This document shows, piece by piece, positions 40,781-52,434 of a stretch of 64,000 nt of DNA; the stretch's first letter is position 1, and every line of letters starts with the position of its first letter. The notes under the pieces are model-generated. The model was not told the origin of the DNA and did no database searches. It was given only the letters and a program-made list of their open reading frames with translations. A program made the translations under genes and the position numbers. The DNA is from an uncultured Gammaproteobacteria bacterium (GTDB lineage: Bacteria; Pseudomonadota; Gammaproteobacteria; SZUA-229), in contig CAWUSX010000022.1 in NCBI GenBank assembly GCA_963924875.1, forward strand, positions 36,808 to 100,807. Reading direction: 5' to 3'.

Positions 40781-41374
40781 ATGGCTACAGAAGGCGTAGA
40801 TCAAAAAAAACGCCGCTTTCTGACAAACACCACTGTTGTGGTTGGTGCTGTTGGAGCTGGTTTTGTTGCTGTACCCTTCCTGTCTTCCTGGGCTCCTAGT
40901 GAGCGTGCCAAAACTGCAGGCGCGCCTGTAGAAGTGGACATCAGTAAGTTAGAGGAAGGTCGTTTGTTAACAGTTGAATGGCGCGGTAAGCCGGTGTGGA
41001 TTATCAAACGTAGTGATCAGAACCTGAAGGATCTGGTTACGTTAGATGATAATTTACGTGATCCTGCTTCTGAGAATGATCAGCAGCCGGTATATGCTCA
41101 AAATGCAACGCGTTCTATCAAACCTAATATTATCGTTATGGTGGGTATTTGTACGCATCTAGGTTGCTCTCCTACGTATCGTCCTGATTTGGCTGCCGCT
41201 GACTTAGGTGAAGACTGGAAAGGTGGTTTCTTCTGTCCATGTCACGGTTCTAAGTTTGATTTGGCGGGTCGAGTGTATTCGGGTGTTCCGGCACCATTAA
41301 ACTTGGAAGTACCACCACATTTCTATAAGAGCGATCGTACTATTCTGATCGGTGAAGACGGAGGCCAGGCATAA
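40781..41374 (+). CDS. petA: Ubiquinol-cytochrome c reductase Rieske iron-sulfur subunit
   Basis: 197 aa with a Tat-like KKRRFL, and the Rieske boxes CTHLGC and CPCHGS. Confidence 0.93.
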   Translation: MATEGVDQKKRRFLTNTTVVVGAVGAGFVAVPFLSSWAPSERAKTAGAPVEVDISKLEEGRLLTVEWRGKPVWIIKRSDQNLKDLVTLDDNLRDPASENDQQPVYAQNATRSIKPNIIVMVGICTHLGCSPTYRPDLAAADLGEDWKGGFFCPCHGSKFDLAGRVYSGVPAPLNLEVPPHFYKSDRTILIGEDGGQA

Positions 41375-42588
41375 TGTTTAAAAGCTTAATGACTTGGGTC
41401 GATGATCGTTTCCCAGCAACTAAAATGTGGAATGAACATCTGGCTGAATACTATGCACCAAAGAACTTTAACTTCTGGTAGTTATTTGGTTCATTAGCAC
41501 TGCTGGTTCTGGTTATCCAGATTGTCTCTGGCATCTTCCTAACGATGCACTACAACCCGGACGGCGCTATGGCGTTCGCATCTGTAGAGTACATCATGCG
41601 TGATGTGCCTTACGGCTGGTTGATTCGTTACATCCACTCTACGGGTGCAACGGCCTTCTTCGTGGTGGTTTATCTGCACATGTTCCGTGGCTTAATGTAC
41701 GGTTCATTCAAGAAGCCTCGTGAATTAGTGTGGCTATTCGGTATGTTCATCTACCTGGCATTAATGGCAGAAGCCTTTATGGGTTACCTGTTGCCATGGG
41801 GTCAGATGTCTTACTGGGGTGCGCAGGTTATCATTTCATTGTTTGGTGCTTTGCCGATTATTGGTGATCCGCTAACACTTTGGATTCGTGGTGATTATGT
41901 TGTCTCTGGTGCTACGCTTAACCGTTTCTTTGCGCTACATGTAGTTGCATTGCCGCTGGTTATTTTAGGCCTGGTTGTTGCTCACATCATTGCATTGCAT
42001 GAAGTGGGTTCTAATAACCCTGAAGGCGTTGAAATCAAAAAGCACAAAGATGAAAATGGTATTCCTCTAGACGGTATTCCATTCCACCCTTACTACTCTG
42101 TTAAAGATATCGTAGGTGTGGTTGTGTTCCTGATCTTCTTTAGCCTGGTACTTTTCTTTGCACCAGAAGGCGGCGGTTACTTGCTTGAGCATGCGAACTT
42201 CGTACCATCTGATCCATTGAAGACGCCTCCGCACATAGCGCCTGTTTGGTACTTCACACCGTTCTACGCTATTTTGCGTGCGGTTCCAGATAAGCTCATG
42301 GGTGTTATGGCTATGGGCGGTGCAATCGTTGTGTTGTTCTTACTGCCCTGGATCGACCAGTGTAAAGTTAAGTCGATTCGCTACCGCGGAATGAGTTTCA
42401 AAATTCTATTAGCTGCGTTCTCTGTGTCTTTCGTTGTGCTGGGCTGGTTAGGTATGCAGCCTGCTACACCTGAATTAACATTGCTGGCACGTATCTTTAG
42501 TGTGGTTTACTTTGGCTTCTTTATAGCCCTGTACTTTACATCTAAAAACGAAGCAACGAAGCCTGTACCAGAGAGGATTACCAAATGA
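41374..42588 (+). pseudogene. petB: Cytochrome b (bc1 complex) interrupted by an in-frame TAG at codon 36 (41479-41481)
   Basis: The ATG at 41374 overlaps the petA stop. MFKSLMTWVDDRFPATKMWNEHLAEYYAPKNFNFW, then stop, then LFGSLALLVLVIQIVSGIFLTMHYNPD continues in the same frame into ORF 41545-42588. The stop replaces the Tyr of the conserved W-Y-F-F-G. Confidence 0.85.
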
Positions 42589-48805: not shown

Positions 48806-48868
48806 TGTCTGGTGTACGGTTAACTAATGTTATTATTGCGCCCCAGAGTATCTTGTTTGGAGCCGCGA

Positions 48869-49714
48869 GTGTCAATTAATCAGGGCATACTTTATATAGT
48901 AGCCACCCCCATTGGTAATCTTTCTGATATAGGTGGAAGGGCTGTGGAGATTTTGCAGCAGGTAGATTTGATTGCCGCAGAAGATACCCGGCACAGTAAA
49001 CCTTTACTGCAGCACTACGGTGTAGCTACCCCTATGCAGGCGTATCACGAGCATAATGAAGAATATTTGACGCCCAAGCTTATACAGCGTTTGTTGGCGG
49101 GTGACAGCGTAGCACTGATTTCTGATGCGGGTACGCCATTGCTGAGTGATCCTGGCTACCGTCTTGTAAAGGCGGCGCACGAGTCTTCAATAAAGGTTAG
49201 CCCGGTGCCGGGCCCCTGTGCGGCTATTGCTGCGCTGTCGGCCTCTGGTTTGGCAACGGATCGATTTTTATTTGCCGGTTTTAGTCCGCATAAGCAGGGT
49301 GCAAGGCAAAGCTTTTATCGAGAGTTTGAACGTCAAACGGCAACGCTGGTGTTTTATGAGTCGAGTCACCGCATTGTTGCGGCGGCTAAAGATTTATTAA
49401 ATGTATTTGGTCCTGAGCGGCAAATCGTCATGGCAAGGGAAATGACCAAAACATTTGAAACTATACACAGCACTTACTTAGGTGAGTTTCCTGATTGGCT
49501 GGAGGCTGACCATAATCAACAAAAAGGTGAGTTTGTGCTTGTGCTTGAAGGTGCGGTTAAAAATGACAATGCGCTAGAGCTGGATATGGAAGATACCTTA
49601 AGGATATTACTAGAGGAGCTGCCGGTGAAGCAGGCCAGTCAATTGACGGCAAAAATAACTAGATTGAAAAAAAATCAGGTTTATAAGCTGGCGCTTGAAC
49701 TTTCTGGTAAGTAA
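48869..49714 (+). CDS. rsmI: 16S rRNA (cytidine1402-2'-O)-methyltransferase
   Basis: ILYIVATPIGNLSDI, LIAAEDTRH, SDAGTPLLSDPGY and FYESSHR. The GTG at 48869, 6 nt after GGAG, is preferred to the upstream ATG at 48827. Confidence 0.92.
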   Translation: MSINQGILYIVATPIGNLSDIGGRAVEILQQVDLIAAEDTRHSKPLLQHYGVATPMQAYHEHNEEYLTPKLIQRLLAGDSVALISDAGTPLLSDPGYRLVKAAHESSIKVSPVPGPCAAIAALSASGLATDRFLFAGFSPHKQGARQSFYREFERQTATLVFYESSHRIVAAAKDLLNVFGPERQIVMAREMTKTFETIHSTYLGEFPDWLEADHNQQKGEFVLVLEGAVKNDNALELDMEDTLRILLEELPVKQASQLTAKITRLKKNQVYKLALELSGK

Positions 49715-50139
49715 CTGAAAAATATATATAAATTCTTATTTTTAGTCAGTATTTTTATGTCTCACCCGTTTGGGGTGTAGTTATTTTTTACATATTTAAC
49801 TGATTGATACTTATCCCAAAATACCTTGTTTTTTTGCAAAACGTCAAAAAAAATGCCTTTAACGTCAGCAATTTTTACAAAAATATGACACAAGGCATGA
49901 TCTCCGTCATCTGAAGTTTATAAGCCTTTGTTTTTGTTTGTCTTTTAAAAGTAGGTACGGGGTATGCATTTAACCTCACAAGGCTTACATCCACGGCACT
50001 AAAAATAAATTATATAAATTGTAGTTGCCGCAAAAATTTGGACTGTAATGCATCTAAATGAAAATACAGAAATTAATTTGGAAGGTTGAACTGTAAAAGA
50101 CGCAGTTAACTAATATGGTTTTTTTAGATGGAGTTCCAG

Positions 50140-50613
50140 ATGGCACCACTATTTGCAGTATATGAAGATTTTAGCGCTTGTTGTGATGAATTTGTTGAAG
50201 GCGTTACCTTTCTTAAGGGTCGTTCAATACCCAGTGCAATTGATAGTTTTCAACAGGCGTTCGACTCTGTGGGTCGTGCAGATGTATATCATAATAAATA
50301 TGCGTCATATTGTGGTTTAGCACGCGTATTGTCCGGTGATGCTACAGGTTTGGATATGTGTCGTCAGGCGGCTACCAGTGAGTTACTAGACGGTGATGTA
50401 TATCTTAATCTGGCGCGTGCCGAGTGGTATTTTGAAAACCGTAAGGCAGCGATTGTCGTTTTGAAAAAAGGTTTGAGAATTGATAGTCGCCACCCGGGGT
50501 TACGTCAAATGCGTGAGCAGTTGGGCGTCAGACAGCGTAGCCCCTTGCCTTTTTTGCCTAGAACACACCCATTAAATCAGGCGCTGGGTAAGTTGATGCG
50601 CATTGATGACTAA
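50140..50613 (+). CDS. Unrecognised family, paralogue A (157 aa), helical-repeat-like body with basic C-terminal tail
   Basis: ATG at 50140, 6 nt after GGAG. Aligns without gaps to the two downstream paralogues (Y8, D10, C14, F18, G21; NKYASYCG; DGDVYLNLARAEWYF; LGVRQRSPLPFLPRTHPLNQALGKLMR). Confidence 0.65.
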   Translation: MAPLFAVYEDFSACCDEFVEGVTFLKGRSIPSAIDSFQQAFDSVGRADVYHNKYASYCGLARVLSGDATGLDMCRQAATSELLDGDVYLNLARAEWYFENRKAAIVVLKKGLRIDSRHPGLRQMREQLGVRQRSPLPFLPRTHPLNQALGKLMRIDD

Positions 50614-50694
50614 CGAATAAATTAAATGATAAAAGATTTGGATATAAAGATAAGGTTAGAAATGGCCTACAGGTTATAAGTTTAGCGTGGTTAA

Positions 50695-50724
50695 CCACAG
50701 ATGATTTCATCTGTGGTTTTTTTT
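50695..50724 (+). terminator. Rho-independent terminator after paralogue A
   Basis: CCACAGATG-attt-CATCTGTGG followed by T8. Confidence 0.8.
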
Positions 50725-50783
50725 ATCGAAAATTTAGTTGGCATACTGGATTTTGCTTTAATTATTCTGCAAGAGGACGTGTT

Positions 50784-51255
50784 ATGAATATTGAAAAAGT
50801 GACGTATAAAGATTACAGCCTATGTGATCCTAACTTTATGCAGGGTATTGATCTTCTTGTTGAAGGCCTTATTGCTCAAGCTGCGCATTGTTTTTGAGCT
50901 TGCTTATGAGCAAGTTACATATAAAAATCTGCATTATAATAAATATGCATCATTTTGTGGTTATACCCGAGTGTTAAATGGGGGTGACCGTGGTGGCTTG
51001 TCATTGTGTCGGGAGGTGGCTCGTCGTGAACTATATGATGGTGATGTGTTTTTTAATTTATCTAAGGCGGAATGGTTTTTTAAGGCGCGAAAGCAGACCA
51101 TTAGTGCATTAAGAGAAGGCTTGAGGGTTGACTTTATGCACCCTGGCTTGCGAGAATTACGCAATGCTTTAGGCGTCAGAAAAAAAGCGCCGATTATGTT
51201 TTTACCAAGAAAACATGTGCTTAATAATGGATTGGGAAAATTACTTAGAAAATAG
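50784..51255 (+). pseudogene. Unrecognised family, paralogue B, split by a +1 frameshift in a T5 run (50891-50895)
   Basis: ATG at 50784 (SD AAGAGGA) gives MNIEKVTYKDYSLCDPNFMQGIDLLVEGLIAQAAHCF, then TGA. Dropping one T joins it to ELAYEQVTYKNLHYNKYASFCG... of ORF 50824-51255, restoring about 156 aa colinear with paralogues A and C. Confidence 0.6.
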
Positions 51256-51333
51256 GATTGATTTTCCAGGTCAGGAAAAATTTATATGTAATCACTATTA
51301 AACGGAATTTTGTACACAAACAAGGAGGTGGTT

Positions 51334-51807
51334 GTGTCATATATTAAAGCGATTTATTTCGACTTAGATCAGTGTAATGAAGACTTTGTAAAAGGCATCA
51401 GGTTTTTAGAGCAGTGCTCAATTGAAGATTCCATTGCATGCTTTAAAAGCGCGTACAGCTCAGGGCCGGTTGACGATCGGTTGTTTCCTAAATATAAATC
51501 ATATTATGGCTTATCCTGCTTGTTGAGTGGGGATGATACGGCTATTTCTATTTGTCGAAATATTGTCATTAAATGCCCGTACGATGCGGACGTATGTCTA
51601 AATTTAGCGCGTGCGGAAGTCTTTATTGATAATCGAAAAGCGGCAATTCAGGTGATTGATAAGGGTTTAATTTTTTCCGCTCATCACGATGGATTAAATG
51701 CCTTTAAAAGTAAATTGGGGGTAAGAGGGCGTAGAATTTTGCCTTTTTTATCTCGAGATAATCGATTTAATATTCTGTTAGGTCGCCTCATACGCAGAAA
51801 AAAGTAA
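51334..51807 (+). CDS. Unrecognised family, paralogue C (157 aa)
   Basis: GTG at 51334, 5 nt after AGGAGG (51323-51328). MSYIKAIYFDLDQCNEDFVKG... and C-terminal LGVRGRRILPFLSRDNRFNILLGRLIRRKK. Confidence 0.65.
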   Translation: MSYIKAIYFDLDQCNEDFVKGIRFLEQCSIEDSIACFKSAYSSGPVDDRLFPKYKSYYGLSCLLSGDDTAISICRNIVIKCPYDADVCLNLARAEVFIDNRKAAIQVIDKGLIFSAHHDGLNAFKSKLGVRGRRILPFLSRDNRFNILLGRLIRRKK

Positions 51808-51826: not shown

Positions 51827-51835
51827 TGCTATAGT
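51827..51835 (+). promoter_or_regulatory. Candidate extended -10 promoter (TGcTATAGT) for rnpB
   Basis: TGCTATAGT ends 7 nt before the predicted RNase P RNA 5' end. No good -35 at 17-nt spacing. Confidence 0.4.
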
Positions 51836-51842
51836 TTTGCGC

Positions 51843-52218
51843 GAAGTTGGCTGGGTAATCGCTGTGTGAGCAATTCTTTTGGGTTGTTTGCAGAGAGGAA
51901 AGTCCGGGCTCCATAGGGCAGGGTGCCAGGTAACGCCTGGGGGGCATAATGCCCACGGCTAGTGCAGCAGAAAGATACCGCCTCAGTTAGCTTAAGGCTT
52001 ATTGGGGTAAGGGTGAAATGGTGCGGTAAGAGCGCACCGCGCAACTGGTAACAGTTTGTGGCAAGGTAAACCCCACCTGGAGCAAGACCAAATAGAGAAG
52101 CTGAGGCGTGGCCCGCGCTGCTTCTGGGTAGGTTGCTTGAGGCGTGTAGTGATATACGTCCTAGATGAATGATTACCGCGGCTTCGGCCGTACAAAACCC
52201 GGCTTACAGGCCAACTTC
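51843..52218 (+). ncRNA. rnpB: RNase P RNA, bacterial type A
   Basis: GAAGTTGGC...GCCAACTTC forms the P1 pairing. Universal blocks are present: GAGGAAAGTCCGGGCTCCATAGGGCAGGGTGCCAGGTAACGCCTGGGGGG, GGTAAGGGTGAAATGGTGCGGTAAGAGCGCACCGC, GGTAAACCCCACCTGGAGCAAGACCAAATAG, CCTAGATGAATGATTACC and ACAAAACCCGGCTTA. A T-run follows. Confidence 0.93.
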
Positions 52219-52404
52219 TTTTTTTATTCTCCCTTCTTAATGTTCTTCTTAAAATTCCTCGCAGTTAATGTAGTTTATTAGGTAGTTTACTTAACTATCT
52301 GACTTATCATTTGTTATTCCGTTTGTCGCCATTGTATTTCTGTGAACCACTCCTAAGTTGTTGTCATATAAGGAAAAAACCCTCTATTTATTGCCTGTTT
52401 TTTC

Positions 52405-52434
52405 TTGACAGTGGTGGGTTGGGGTACCTATAGT
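52405..52434 (+). promoter_or_regulatory. Pmra-type sigma-70 promoter of the dcw cluster
   Basis: TTGACA (52405-52410), an 18-nt spacer, then TATAGT (52429-52434), about 115 nt upstream of mraZ. Confidence 0.6.

Follow-up and report, generated by a model that had tools for sequence, protein, structure and literature searches.

A lineage-conserved tandem array of genes for small tetratricopeptide repeat proteins between rsmI and rnpB in uncultured Gammaproteobacteria

Organisation of the locus

The stretch of DNA analysed here (referred to as the window) comprises 64,000 nucleotides (64 kb) from an uncultured gammaproteobacterium of the GTDB lineage SZUA-229 (GenBank assembly GCA_963924875.1, contig CAWUSX010000022.1, positions 36,808 to 100,807). 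It contains an array of three tandem genes (referred to as A, B and C) for small tetratricopeptide repeat (TPR) proteins, located between rsmI and rnpB, the gene for the RNA of ribonuclease P (RNase P). All positions are given in window numbering, with the forward strand of the 64-kb stretch as the plus strand. rsmI occupies 48827–49714, and rnpB, the conserved downstream neighbour of the family, occupies 51843–52222 on the plus strand and encodes a type-A bacterial RNase P RNA (Rfam RF00010, 320 bits, full-length match to the model). The interval between the two measures 2128 bp, in line with the approximately 2.1 kb of a first-pass annotation made from the sequence alone, and holds three homologous coding regions, all on the plus strand. 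The GC content of the array is 0.38–0.39; the window averages 0.42, and local values range from 0.36 to 0.49.

Copy A (50140–50613, +) adjoins rsmI and encodes 157 amino acids, made up of three TPR repeats and a capping helix (approximately residues 16–128) followed by a basic tail (residues 129–157). In an alignment of 12 rsmI-to-A spacers its start codon, ATG 50140, is kept in relatives, and the alternative ATG at 50128 is not. Copy B (50784–51255, +) is a frameshifted allele with a restored product of 156 amino acids, and copy C (51334–51807, +), which starts with GTG and adjoins rnpB, is the most divergent copy and encodes 157 amino acids with the same fold. As previously described, each copy has its own Shine-Dalgarno sequence (GGAG at 50130–50133 for A, AGAGGA at 50772–50777 for B and AAGGAGG at 51322–51328 for C), and a strong intrinsic terminator lies downstream of A (50693–50726, +), consisting of an 11-bp stem and 4-nt loop (50693–50718) and a T8 run. 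Neither B nor C has a predicted terminator after it, so that read-through from C into rnpB is possible.

The copies are clearly related, with 47% amino-acid identity between A and restored B, 43% between A and C, and tblastn E-values of 1e-17 to 1e-47 among the three. The shared motifs listed in the first-pass annotation are all present and its estimate of about one half for the identical A/B positions is borne out; the end-to-end alignment, which had been described as free of gaps, requires one internal gap column.

The frame of copy B that begins at ATG 50784 stops at TGA 50895–50897 after 37 codons, and the rest of the gene lies in the +1 frame (open reading frame (ORF) 50824–51255). A run of five T residues (T5, 50891–50895) puts the TGA in frame, and with one T fewer the 156-residue protein is restored; the annotated set of 157, 156 and 157 residues therefore stands for the intact A and C, and for the split B only after removal of this T. 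Two contigs in ENA (L065 and L066; L-numbers denote retrieved loci or contigs), which are 97.6% identical to the window in nucleotide sequence across rsmI to mraZ, have four T residues and an intact B, and the orthologues of L002–L005, L007 and L011 are intact as well. The same T5 is present in a Logan contig (L001) that matches the window exactly over its A, its C and the part of rnpB that it contains. Copy B is thus either an allele in which the frameshift arose very recently, or the product of a consensus error common to two assemblies that perhaps come from one sample. A programmed +1 frameshift at UUU_UGA, where slippage would yield exactly the full-length protein, was also considered; it was rejected as the default reading, since a Shine-Dalgarno-like stimulator is missing upstream and strains nearly identical to this one simply have one T fewer.

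Architecture of the encoded proteins

AlphaFold2 models built with family alignments have a predicted local distance difference test score (pLDDT) of 88.1 and a predicted template modelling score (pTM) of 0.78 for A, and 88.9 and 0.77 respectively for C. In both models seven helices (residues 16–26, 30–43, 51–64, 69–80, 85–97, 101–114 and 119–128) are followed by an extended segment (129–143, pLDDT 74–87) and a terminal helix (144–156), giving eight helices in total in both copies. Foldseek searches of the PDB returned three-repeat TPR domains (Hop TPR1, CTPR3, SGT, RPAP3 and YbgF) with target-normalised template modelling scores of 0.63–0.78, and a profile of diverse family members matched consensus TPR proteins with E-values of 1e-17 to 1e-86 over profile positions 12–123. 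The two features that define the TPR superfamily, the 34-residue repeat profile and the right-handed stack of antiparallel helix pairs, are both found here. Structure prediction, Foldseek and profile search together indicate that the body of A, B and C is a canonical three-TPR domain, consistent with the TPR-like body proposed at first sight.

Searched singly, A, B and C reach E-values of only 0.05–0.16 on Pfam TPR models, below the cut-offs, and have no significant match in Pfam, NCBIfam, PADLOC or PHROG, with no model covering the whole protein. Among 39 diverse family members, 22 match PF07719 (TPR_2) and 14 match PF00515 (TPR_1), with best E-values of 1e-15 to 1e-16. The description of the family as unrecognised is therefore apt for the protein as a whole, for which no curated model exists, and not for its body, which is recognisable in distant members. 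Only the tail and the architecture as a whole are undescribed; the fold of the body is that of an ordinary TPR domain. No match to the RnpA family was found for the three copies in Pfam or NCBIfam; RnpA (Pfam Ribonuclease_P) has an alpha-beta fold and the fold predicted here is all-helical TPR. No RNA-binding domain was detected in A, B or C.

The tail carries the signature G129-x-R131-x-[KR]-P-x-x-P-F138-L139-x-R141-x4-N146-x2-L-G150-[KR], spans 28 residues and is rich in arginine and lysine, and a family profile search found no match to it in the PDB. R131, R141, N146 and G150, together with C74 of the body, are conserved in 98–100% of 305 sequences, and R131, F138, L139, R141, N146 and G150 are present in A, restored B and C, with family-wide frequencies of 0.85–1.00. 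The invariant residues of the tail form the most conserved feature across the family. The family can be defined by a length of 150–200 residues, three TPRs with a cap, and these tail residues, all of which are found in A, restored B and C.

The most conserved body residues (N90-L91-A92, G59, G70, A77, G111 and C74) occupy canonical TPR structural positions, and conserved residues also line the groove (K53, S56, Y57, D86, N90 and R93). For the invariant C74, a part in a sulfur relay or in metal binding was weighed and rejected, as this residue is at buried TPR core position 24 and there is no second invariant cluster of cysteine or histidine. The proteins have isoelectric points of 7.7–9.5 and a tail net charge of +3 to +9, and their maximum 19-residue Kyte-Doolittle hydrophobicity is at most 1.23, so no membrane segment is expected. 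Mean-field direct coupling analysis (DCA) with approximately 190 effective sequences recovered the i+17 and i+34 contacts of TPRs as well as pairs between tail and body (A33-L139, Y54-G129, R101-N146/G150 and K110-L145); these couplings would fit a tail folded back against the TPR domain.

Distribution, descent and selection

An exhaustive profile search returned 1201 cluster representatives (50% identity) at E<=1e-3, of which 603 reach E<=1e-10. Among the best 150 representatives, almost all are 150–200 residues long and align through the tail. Named members are all called “hypothetical” or “TPR repeat protein”, and the sources are metagenomes or metagenome-assembled genomes (MAGs) labelled Gammaproteobacteria, Thiotrichaceae, Thiotrichales or Methylococcales; no cultured organism was present among the homologues retrieved, including those of a second homologue search with a diverse alignment, which returned mostly the same close relatives. 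The array thus represents a stand-alone three-TPR family with a diagnostic invariant tail that is widespread in metagenomes, and a family definition built on architecture and tail motif would improve the annotation of many MAGs.

In a neighbour-joining tree of 101 copies, A, B and C form separate lineages, each common to several genomes, which places the duplications before the separation of these species and agrees with the earlier view of the copies as old tandem duplicates. A is the short-branched copy, and the C lineage is long-branched and made up mostly of rnpB-proximal copies. The Nei-Gojobori method gives ratios of non-synonymous to synonymous substitution rates (dN/dS) of 0.04–0.06 for A (compared with L002, L003 and L065) and about 0.2 for B orthologues. 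For C, dS is saturated in the comparison with L002 and L003, and the ratio of the uncorrected proportions (pN/pS) is about 0.36. Between A and its near-identical counterpart in L065 there are seven synonymous changes and one non-synonymous change, a ratio like that of rsmI and mraZ in the same pair. These values, obtained as the first-pass annotation had proposed, indicate that A, B and C are real genes under purifying selection.

Genomic context and the pairing with rnpB

Genomic context was surveyed in 48 loci from species-representative genomes. The order lpoA (−), rsmI (+), one to three family copies, rnpB, mraZ, rsmH is found in at least 15 relatives within the clade of the window, and every close relative retrieved has the array at this junction. 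More distant lineages, with 37–46% identity to A, show other arrangements, in which prmA (−) is followed by one copy, rnpB and mraZ, pgi by one or two copies, rnpB and miaB-phoH-ybeY, or glgA (−) by two copies, rnpB and miaB. In 40 of the 42 rnpB-bearing loci the nearest upstream same-strand ORF of rnpB is a family gene, with gaps of 5–301 bp.

The first-pass annotation had treated the array as an insertion. The same genes, however, occupy the rsmI-rnpB-mraZ junction throughout the clade and precede rnpB in three further contexts. The array is therefore not an insertion, and the comparisons point to a conserved core of the chromosome in this clade of uncultured Gammaproteobacteria. Its GC content is like that of the surroundings. 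PADLOC gave no match and PHROG no significant one. The window contains no tRNA gene, the borders of the array show neither an integrase nor a tRNA nor repeats, and there are no secretion genes nearby.

The link to rnpB is broken in some lineages. In L009, L010, L013 and L021–L023 the gene that comes after rsmI and two or three family copies is not rnpB but one of the TauD family or another gene, in L020 rsmI and one copy are followed by unrelated genes, again with no rnpB, and in L047 the prmA-family arrangement is without rnpB. A scan of metagenomes with the tail motif found rnpB downstream in only 6 of 52 loci, the closest six; the other 46 are without rnpB, as are L050–L052, and no universal neighbour was found in 49 distant loci. 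The same genomes also contain extra paralogues, located between a RimO-type methylthiotransferase gene and cysZ or beside gcvT or bioF.

Several observations add to this picture of the neighbourhood. In two loci of the prmA type a gene for a FabV-type trans-2-enoyl-CoA reductase is inserted between the family gene and rnpB (L037 4498–5700 and L038 6554–7834), so the pair can be split with neither gene lost. In two metagenome contigs of approximately 42–45% GC (L070 2954–4622 and L071 3501–5137) at least two family copies lie upstream of rnpB; in each, the copy that was matched and the ORF nearest rnpB are both family members, so that tandem amplification has recurred in another branch. The RimO-type gene (UPF0004, radical SAM and TRAM_2 domains) divergently adjoins an unlinked paralogue across a spacer of approximately 150–190 bp (L024, L025, L029, L031 and L032), and a MiaB-type methylthiotransferase gene lies just downstream of the family gene and rnpB in L042, L053, L054 and L059. 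The presence of the family beside both kinds of UPF0004/radical-SAM/TRAM methylthiotransferase may be a coincidence or a functional hint.

Despite the family gene upstream, rnpB probably has its own promoter. An extended −10 element inferred from the consensus, TGCTATAGT (51827–51835, +), ends 7 nt before the mature 5′ end of rnpB, and the −35 region extends into the final codons and stop codon of C. A TGnTAtAaT-like extended −10 element ends 6–7 nt before the mature rnpB 5′ end in 12 of 13 loci, and none is evident in L042. Where the gaps are short (5–35 bp; the window, L008, L012, L036, L045 and L053), this element overlaps the stop or last codons of the upstream gene.

Relation to known TPR proteins

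The closest structural counterparts are Hop TPR1 (1ELW), SGT (2VYI), the RPAP3 TPR domain and the designed protein CTPR3 (1NA0), which share with the family seven antiparallel helices (three hairpins and a cap) over approximately 115 residues. Core positions are kept (the equivalents of W/Y-N-L-G/A, A20, A27 and P32), with profile E-values of 1e-11 to 1e-17. In contrast to these domains, the family is bacterial, stand-alone and basic, ends in an invariant 28-residue tail that is unmatched in the PDB, and shows only 13–20% identity. Similarity to the carboxylate-clamp TPR domains (Hop, SGT and CHIP) is one of fold only, and an EEVD-type client is without support; bacterial DnaK and HtpG are not known to have EEVD tails.

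Among natural proteins, the best PDB sequence match is Bacillus subtilis YrrB (2Q7F), which is the only match of the close-family profile (E-value 0.015) and reaches 1.3e-12 with the broad profile. Like the family, YrrB is a small cytosolic bacterial protein made up entirely of TPRs, and it was reportedly once proposed to bridge tRNA-modification and RNA-processing proteins. It differs in its length (a 243-residue PDB chain), in having more repeats and in lacking the conserved basic tail, and as the match covers generic TPR positions only, membership of one family is unsupported. Literature searches for rnpB together with tetratricopeptide proteins, and for YrrB together with TPR, returned nothing relevant.

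The class II chaperones of type III secretion systems (T3SS; LcrH/SycD/PcrH) are, like the family, stand-alone, all-helical three-TPR proteins of approximately 160 residues, and bind extended peptides in their concave groove. They differ in that the tail motif is absent, and the family is basic rather than acidic. A, B and C have no match at E<=1 to TIGR02552 (LcrH_SycD), and their neighbours are rsmI, rnpB and mraZ, with no secretion genes.

Possible functions of the array

Taken together, these results make it probable that the array is a set of lineage-conserved tandem genes for small (~18 kDa), soluble, cytoplasmic TPR proteins, for which a peptide-binding adaptor with a self-docking tail is the likeliest role. 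Each protein would act as an adaptor or scaffold for peptides, with its own tail docked on the TPR domain, where it would serve as a latch or a second surface, and the tandem paralogues might diversify partner specificity or form hetero-oligomers. In terms of history, A has evolved slowly and B and C are old duplicates that have evolved faster; B was inactivated very recently by the one-base insertion, unless the T5 is a consensus error.

A number of considerations weigh against this reading. The term adaptor follows from what TPR domains generally do, and other roles are conceivable for the tail, such as binding to nucleic acid or membrane, or oligomerisation in trans. The proposed docking of the tail draws on pLDDT and DCA, and near-invariant columns can give artefact couplings. 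All loci were retrieved because the family is present, so the survey does not give the frequency of family-free rnpB in the clade. An in-frame TAG in petB (described below) indicates that some consensus errors are possible in the window, and the T5 in B could be one; this is countered by the same T5 in the Logan contig, which is identical over the compared parts.

In one clade the family gene and rnpB are persistently paired in the same direction; this is unusual, and the origin of the pairing bears on function. It is about as probable as its opposite, or slightly less so, that the adjacency is purely architectural, with an ancestral copy having landed upstream of rnpB and encoding a TPR adaptor unrelated to RNase P. 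Because the promoter and upstream elements of rnpB overlap the 3′ end of the gene, rearrangements would rarely separate the pair, and the position of the extended −10 element, immediately upstream of rnpB in nearly all loci inspected and within the gene end at the shortest gaps, is as expected from such an origin. Some lineages have also lost the linkage, outside one clade it is absent, and paralogues work elsewhere in the genome. Set against this, adjacency is kept at gaps of 150–300 bp (L002, L004, L005, L017, L026, L042 and L043), where a breakpoint would be harmless, and four independent changes of the flanks with the pair intact are more than is typical for unrelated neighbours. If the pairing is not functional, it provides an example of adjacency kept because the promoter of an essential RNA gene abuts its neighbour.

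The same persistence, with adjacency and orientation kept through at least four flanking arrangements, could alternatively mean that the family is coupled to RNase P or to the maturation of tRNA, rRNA or ribosomal proteins, with the TPR domain recruiting an enzyme or RnpA, the tail contacting RNA and the gene being co-regulated with rnpB. We regard this as unlikely. In its favour are the strongly basic tail, the possible read-through from C into rnpB, and the recurrence of RNA- or ribosome-modification genes among the neighbours (rsmI, rsmH, prmA, MiaB-type, ybeY and RimO-type genes, with coaD and rsmD noted by eye beside a distant subgroup). This theme was noticed post hoc and several of the contexts are not independent, so it is a weak lead rather than evidence. 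Moreover, the linkage on the rnpB side is broken in the lineages listed above, paralogues within the clade lie beside cysZ, gcvT and bioF, the more distant loci are without rnpB, rnpB has its own promoter, no RNA-binding domain is detected, and gaps of 5–100 bp with an abutting rnpB promoter would keep the adjacency neutrally. A more specific version, in which the family is an accessory factor for maturation of the translation apparatus that is kept beside rnpB because it acts with RNase P RNA or RnpA, or else with the MiaB/RimO-type enzymes and the rRNA or ribosomal-protein methyltransferases that recur among the neighbours, the groove holding the enzyme and the tail contacting RNA, is improbable. 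Bacterial RNase P is considered fully described as an RNA with RnpA. A functional pairing, if true, would point to a new protein cofactor or regulator of RNase P, and if the coupling to RNase P holds, the family would provide the first partner protein of TPR type for an RNA-based RNase P locus in bacteria. The pentatricopeptide repeat (PPR) domain of PRORP is a conceptual analogue for such a cofactor only, as a helical-repeat module tied to RNase P function; PRORP is eukaryotic or organellar, combines PPR with an NYN nuclease domain and has no RNA subunit, whereas here there is no nuclease domain and rnpB is present. The family profile shows weak generic PPR/TPR similarity only.

An origin of the array by horizontal transfer, as an accessory module inserted at a conserved junction (for defence, as a toxin-antitoxin pair or as a secretion-chaperone-like system), is largely refuted and very improbable. 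Such an origin was suggested by the Pseudomonas-type rsmI-rnpB-mraZ junction, which is not known to carry the array, by the variation in copy number from one to three, and by the size and three-TPR build shared with class II T3SS chaperones, together with weak LcrH_SycD matches in 8 of 39 distant members. It is at odds with synteny that extends over a deep clade in which A, B and C form orthologous lineages, with strong purifying selection, with the non-deviant GC content and the absence of mobile, defence or secretion signatures noted above, and with isoelectric points of 7.7–9.5 where class II T3SS chaperones are acidic.

Conserved elements in the spacers

The 413-bp spacer between rsmI and A (49715–50127) had been singled out for its short repeats, which are at the level expected by chance for an AT-rich spacer; yet it holds other blocks that are conserved among relatives. 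In the alignment of 12 spacers, a 17-nt box, TGTAG-N7-TTACA (49776–49792, +), has conserved TGTCG and TTACA columns, and a second copy with conserved columns, reading CGTCAGCAATTTTTACA, is located at 49863–49879 (+). The consensus in relatives (L002–L018) is TGTCG-N7-TTACA, with two copies approximately 90 nt apart in an rsmI-to-A spacer of approximately 430 bp. Box 1 is a candidate −35 element or operator. In box 2, TTTACA forms the −35 of a promoter-like site, TTTACA-16-CATGAT (49874–49901, 9/12 match), and the AACGTCA repeat of the first-pass annotation overlaps this box. From their sequence, both boxes are candidate promoter or operator sites for A; the 17-nt box loosely resembles a Pho box, or a −35 element with an upstream half-site.

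Further downstream, the conserved block at 49950–50065 (+), which lies within the presumed long 5′ leader of A, contains the islands GGTACGGGGTATGCAT, GGCTTACA and GGACTGTAATGCATCTAAATGAAAA, which are found in 12 of 12 relatives. A long-range helix GCTTACA … TGTAA.GC is possible within this block, and the conserved AAATGAAAAA starts short ORFs of variable length (4–12 codons) in relatives. A structured RNA in the 413-bp spacer was considered and is unsupported, with an RNAalifold consensus of −3.4 kcal/mol and three weakly covarying pairs, and Rfam (E<=1) gave no match on this upstream spacer. Beyond rnpB, a near-consensus sigma-70 promoter, TTGACA-18-TATAGT (11/12), lies at 52405–52434, upstream of mraZ in the 327-bp spacer that follows rnpB, and is presumably that of the dcw cell-division cluster.

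An in-frame stop in petB

At some distance from the array, petB (cytochrome b of the bc1 operon, 41374–42588) contains an in-frame TAG at 41479–41481, which divides it into ORFs of 35 and 347 codons in the same frame and falls where cytochrome b normally reads …NFNFW-Y-FFGSLA…. Either this essential gene carries a nonsense allele or the TAG reflects an error in the consensus; as an ordinary stop codon, TAG occurs elsewhere, for example at the end of B.

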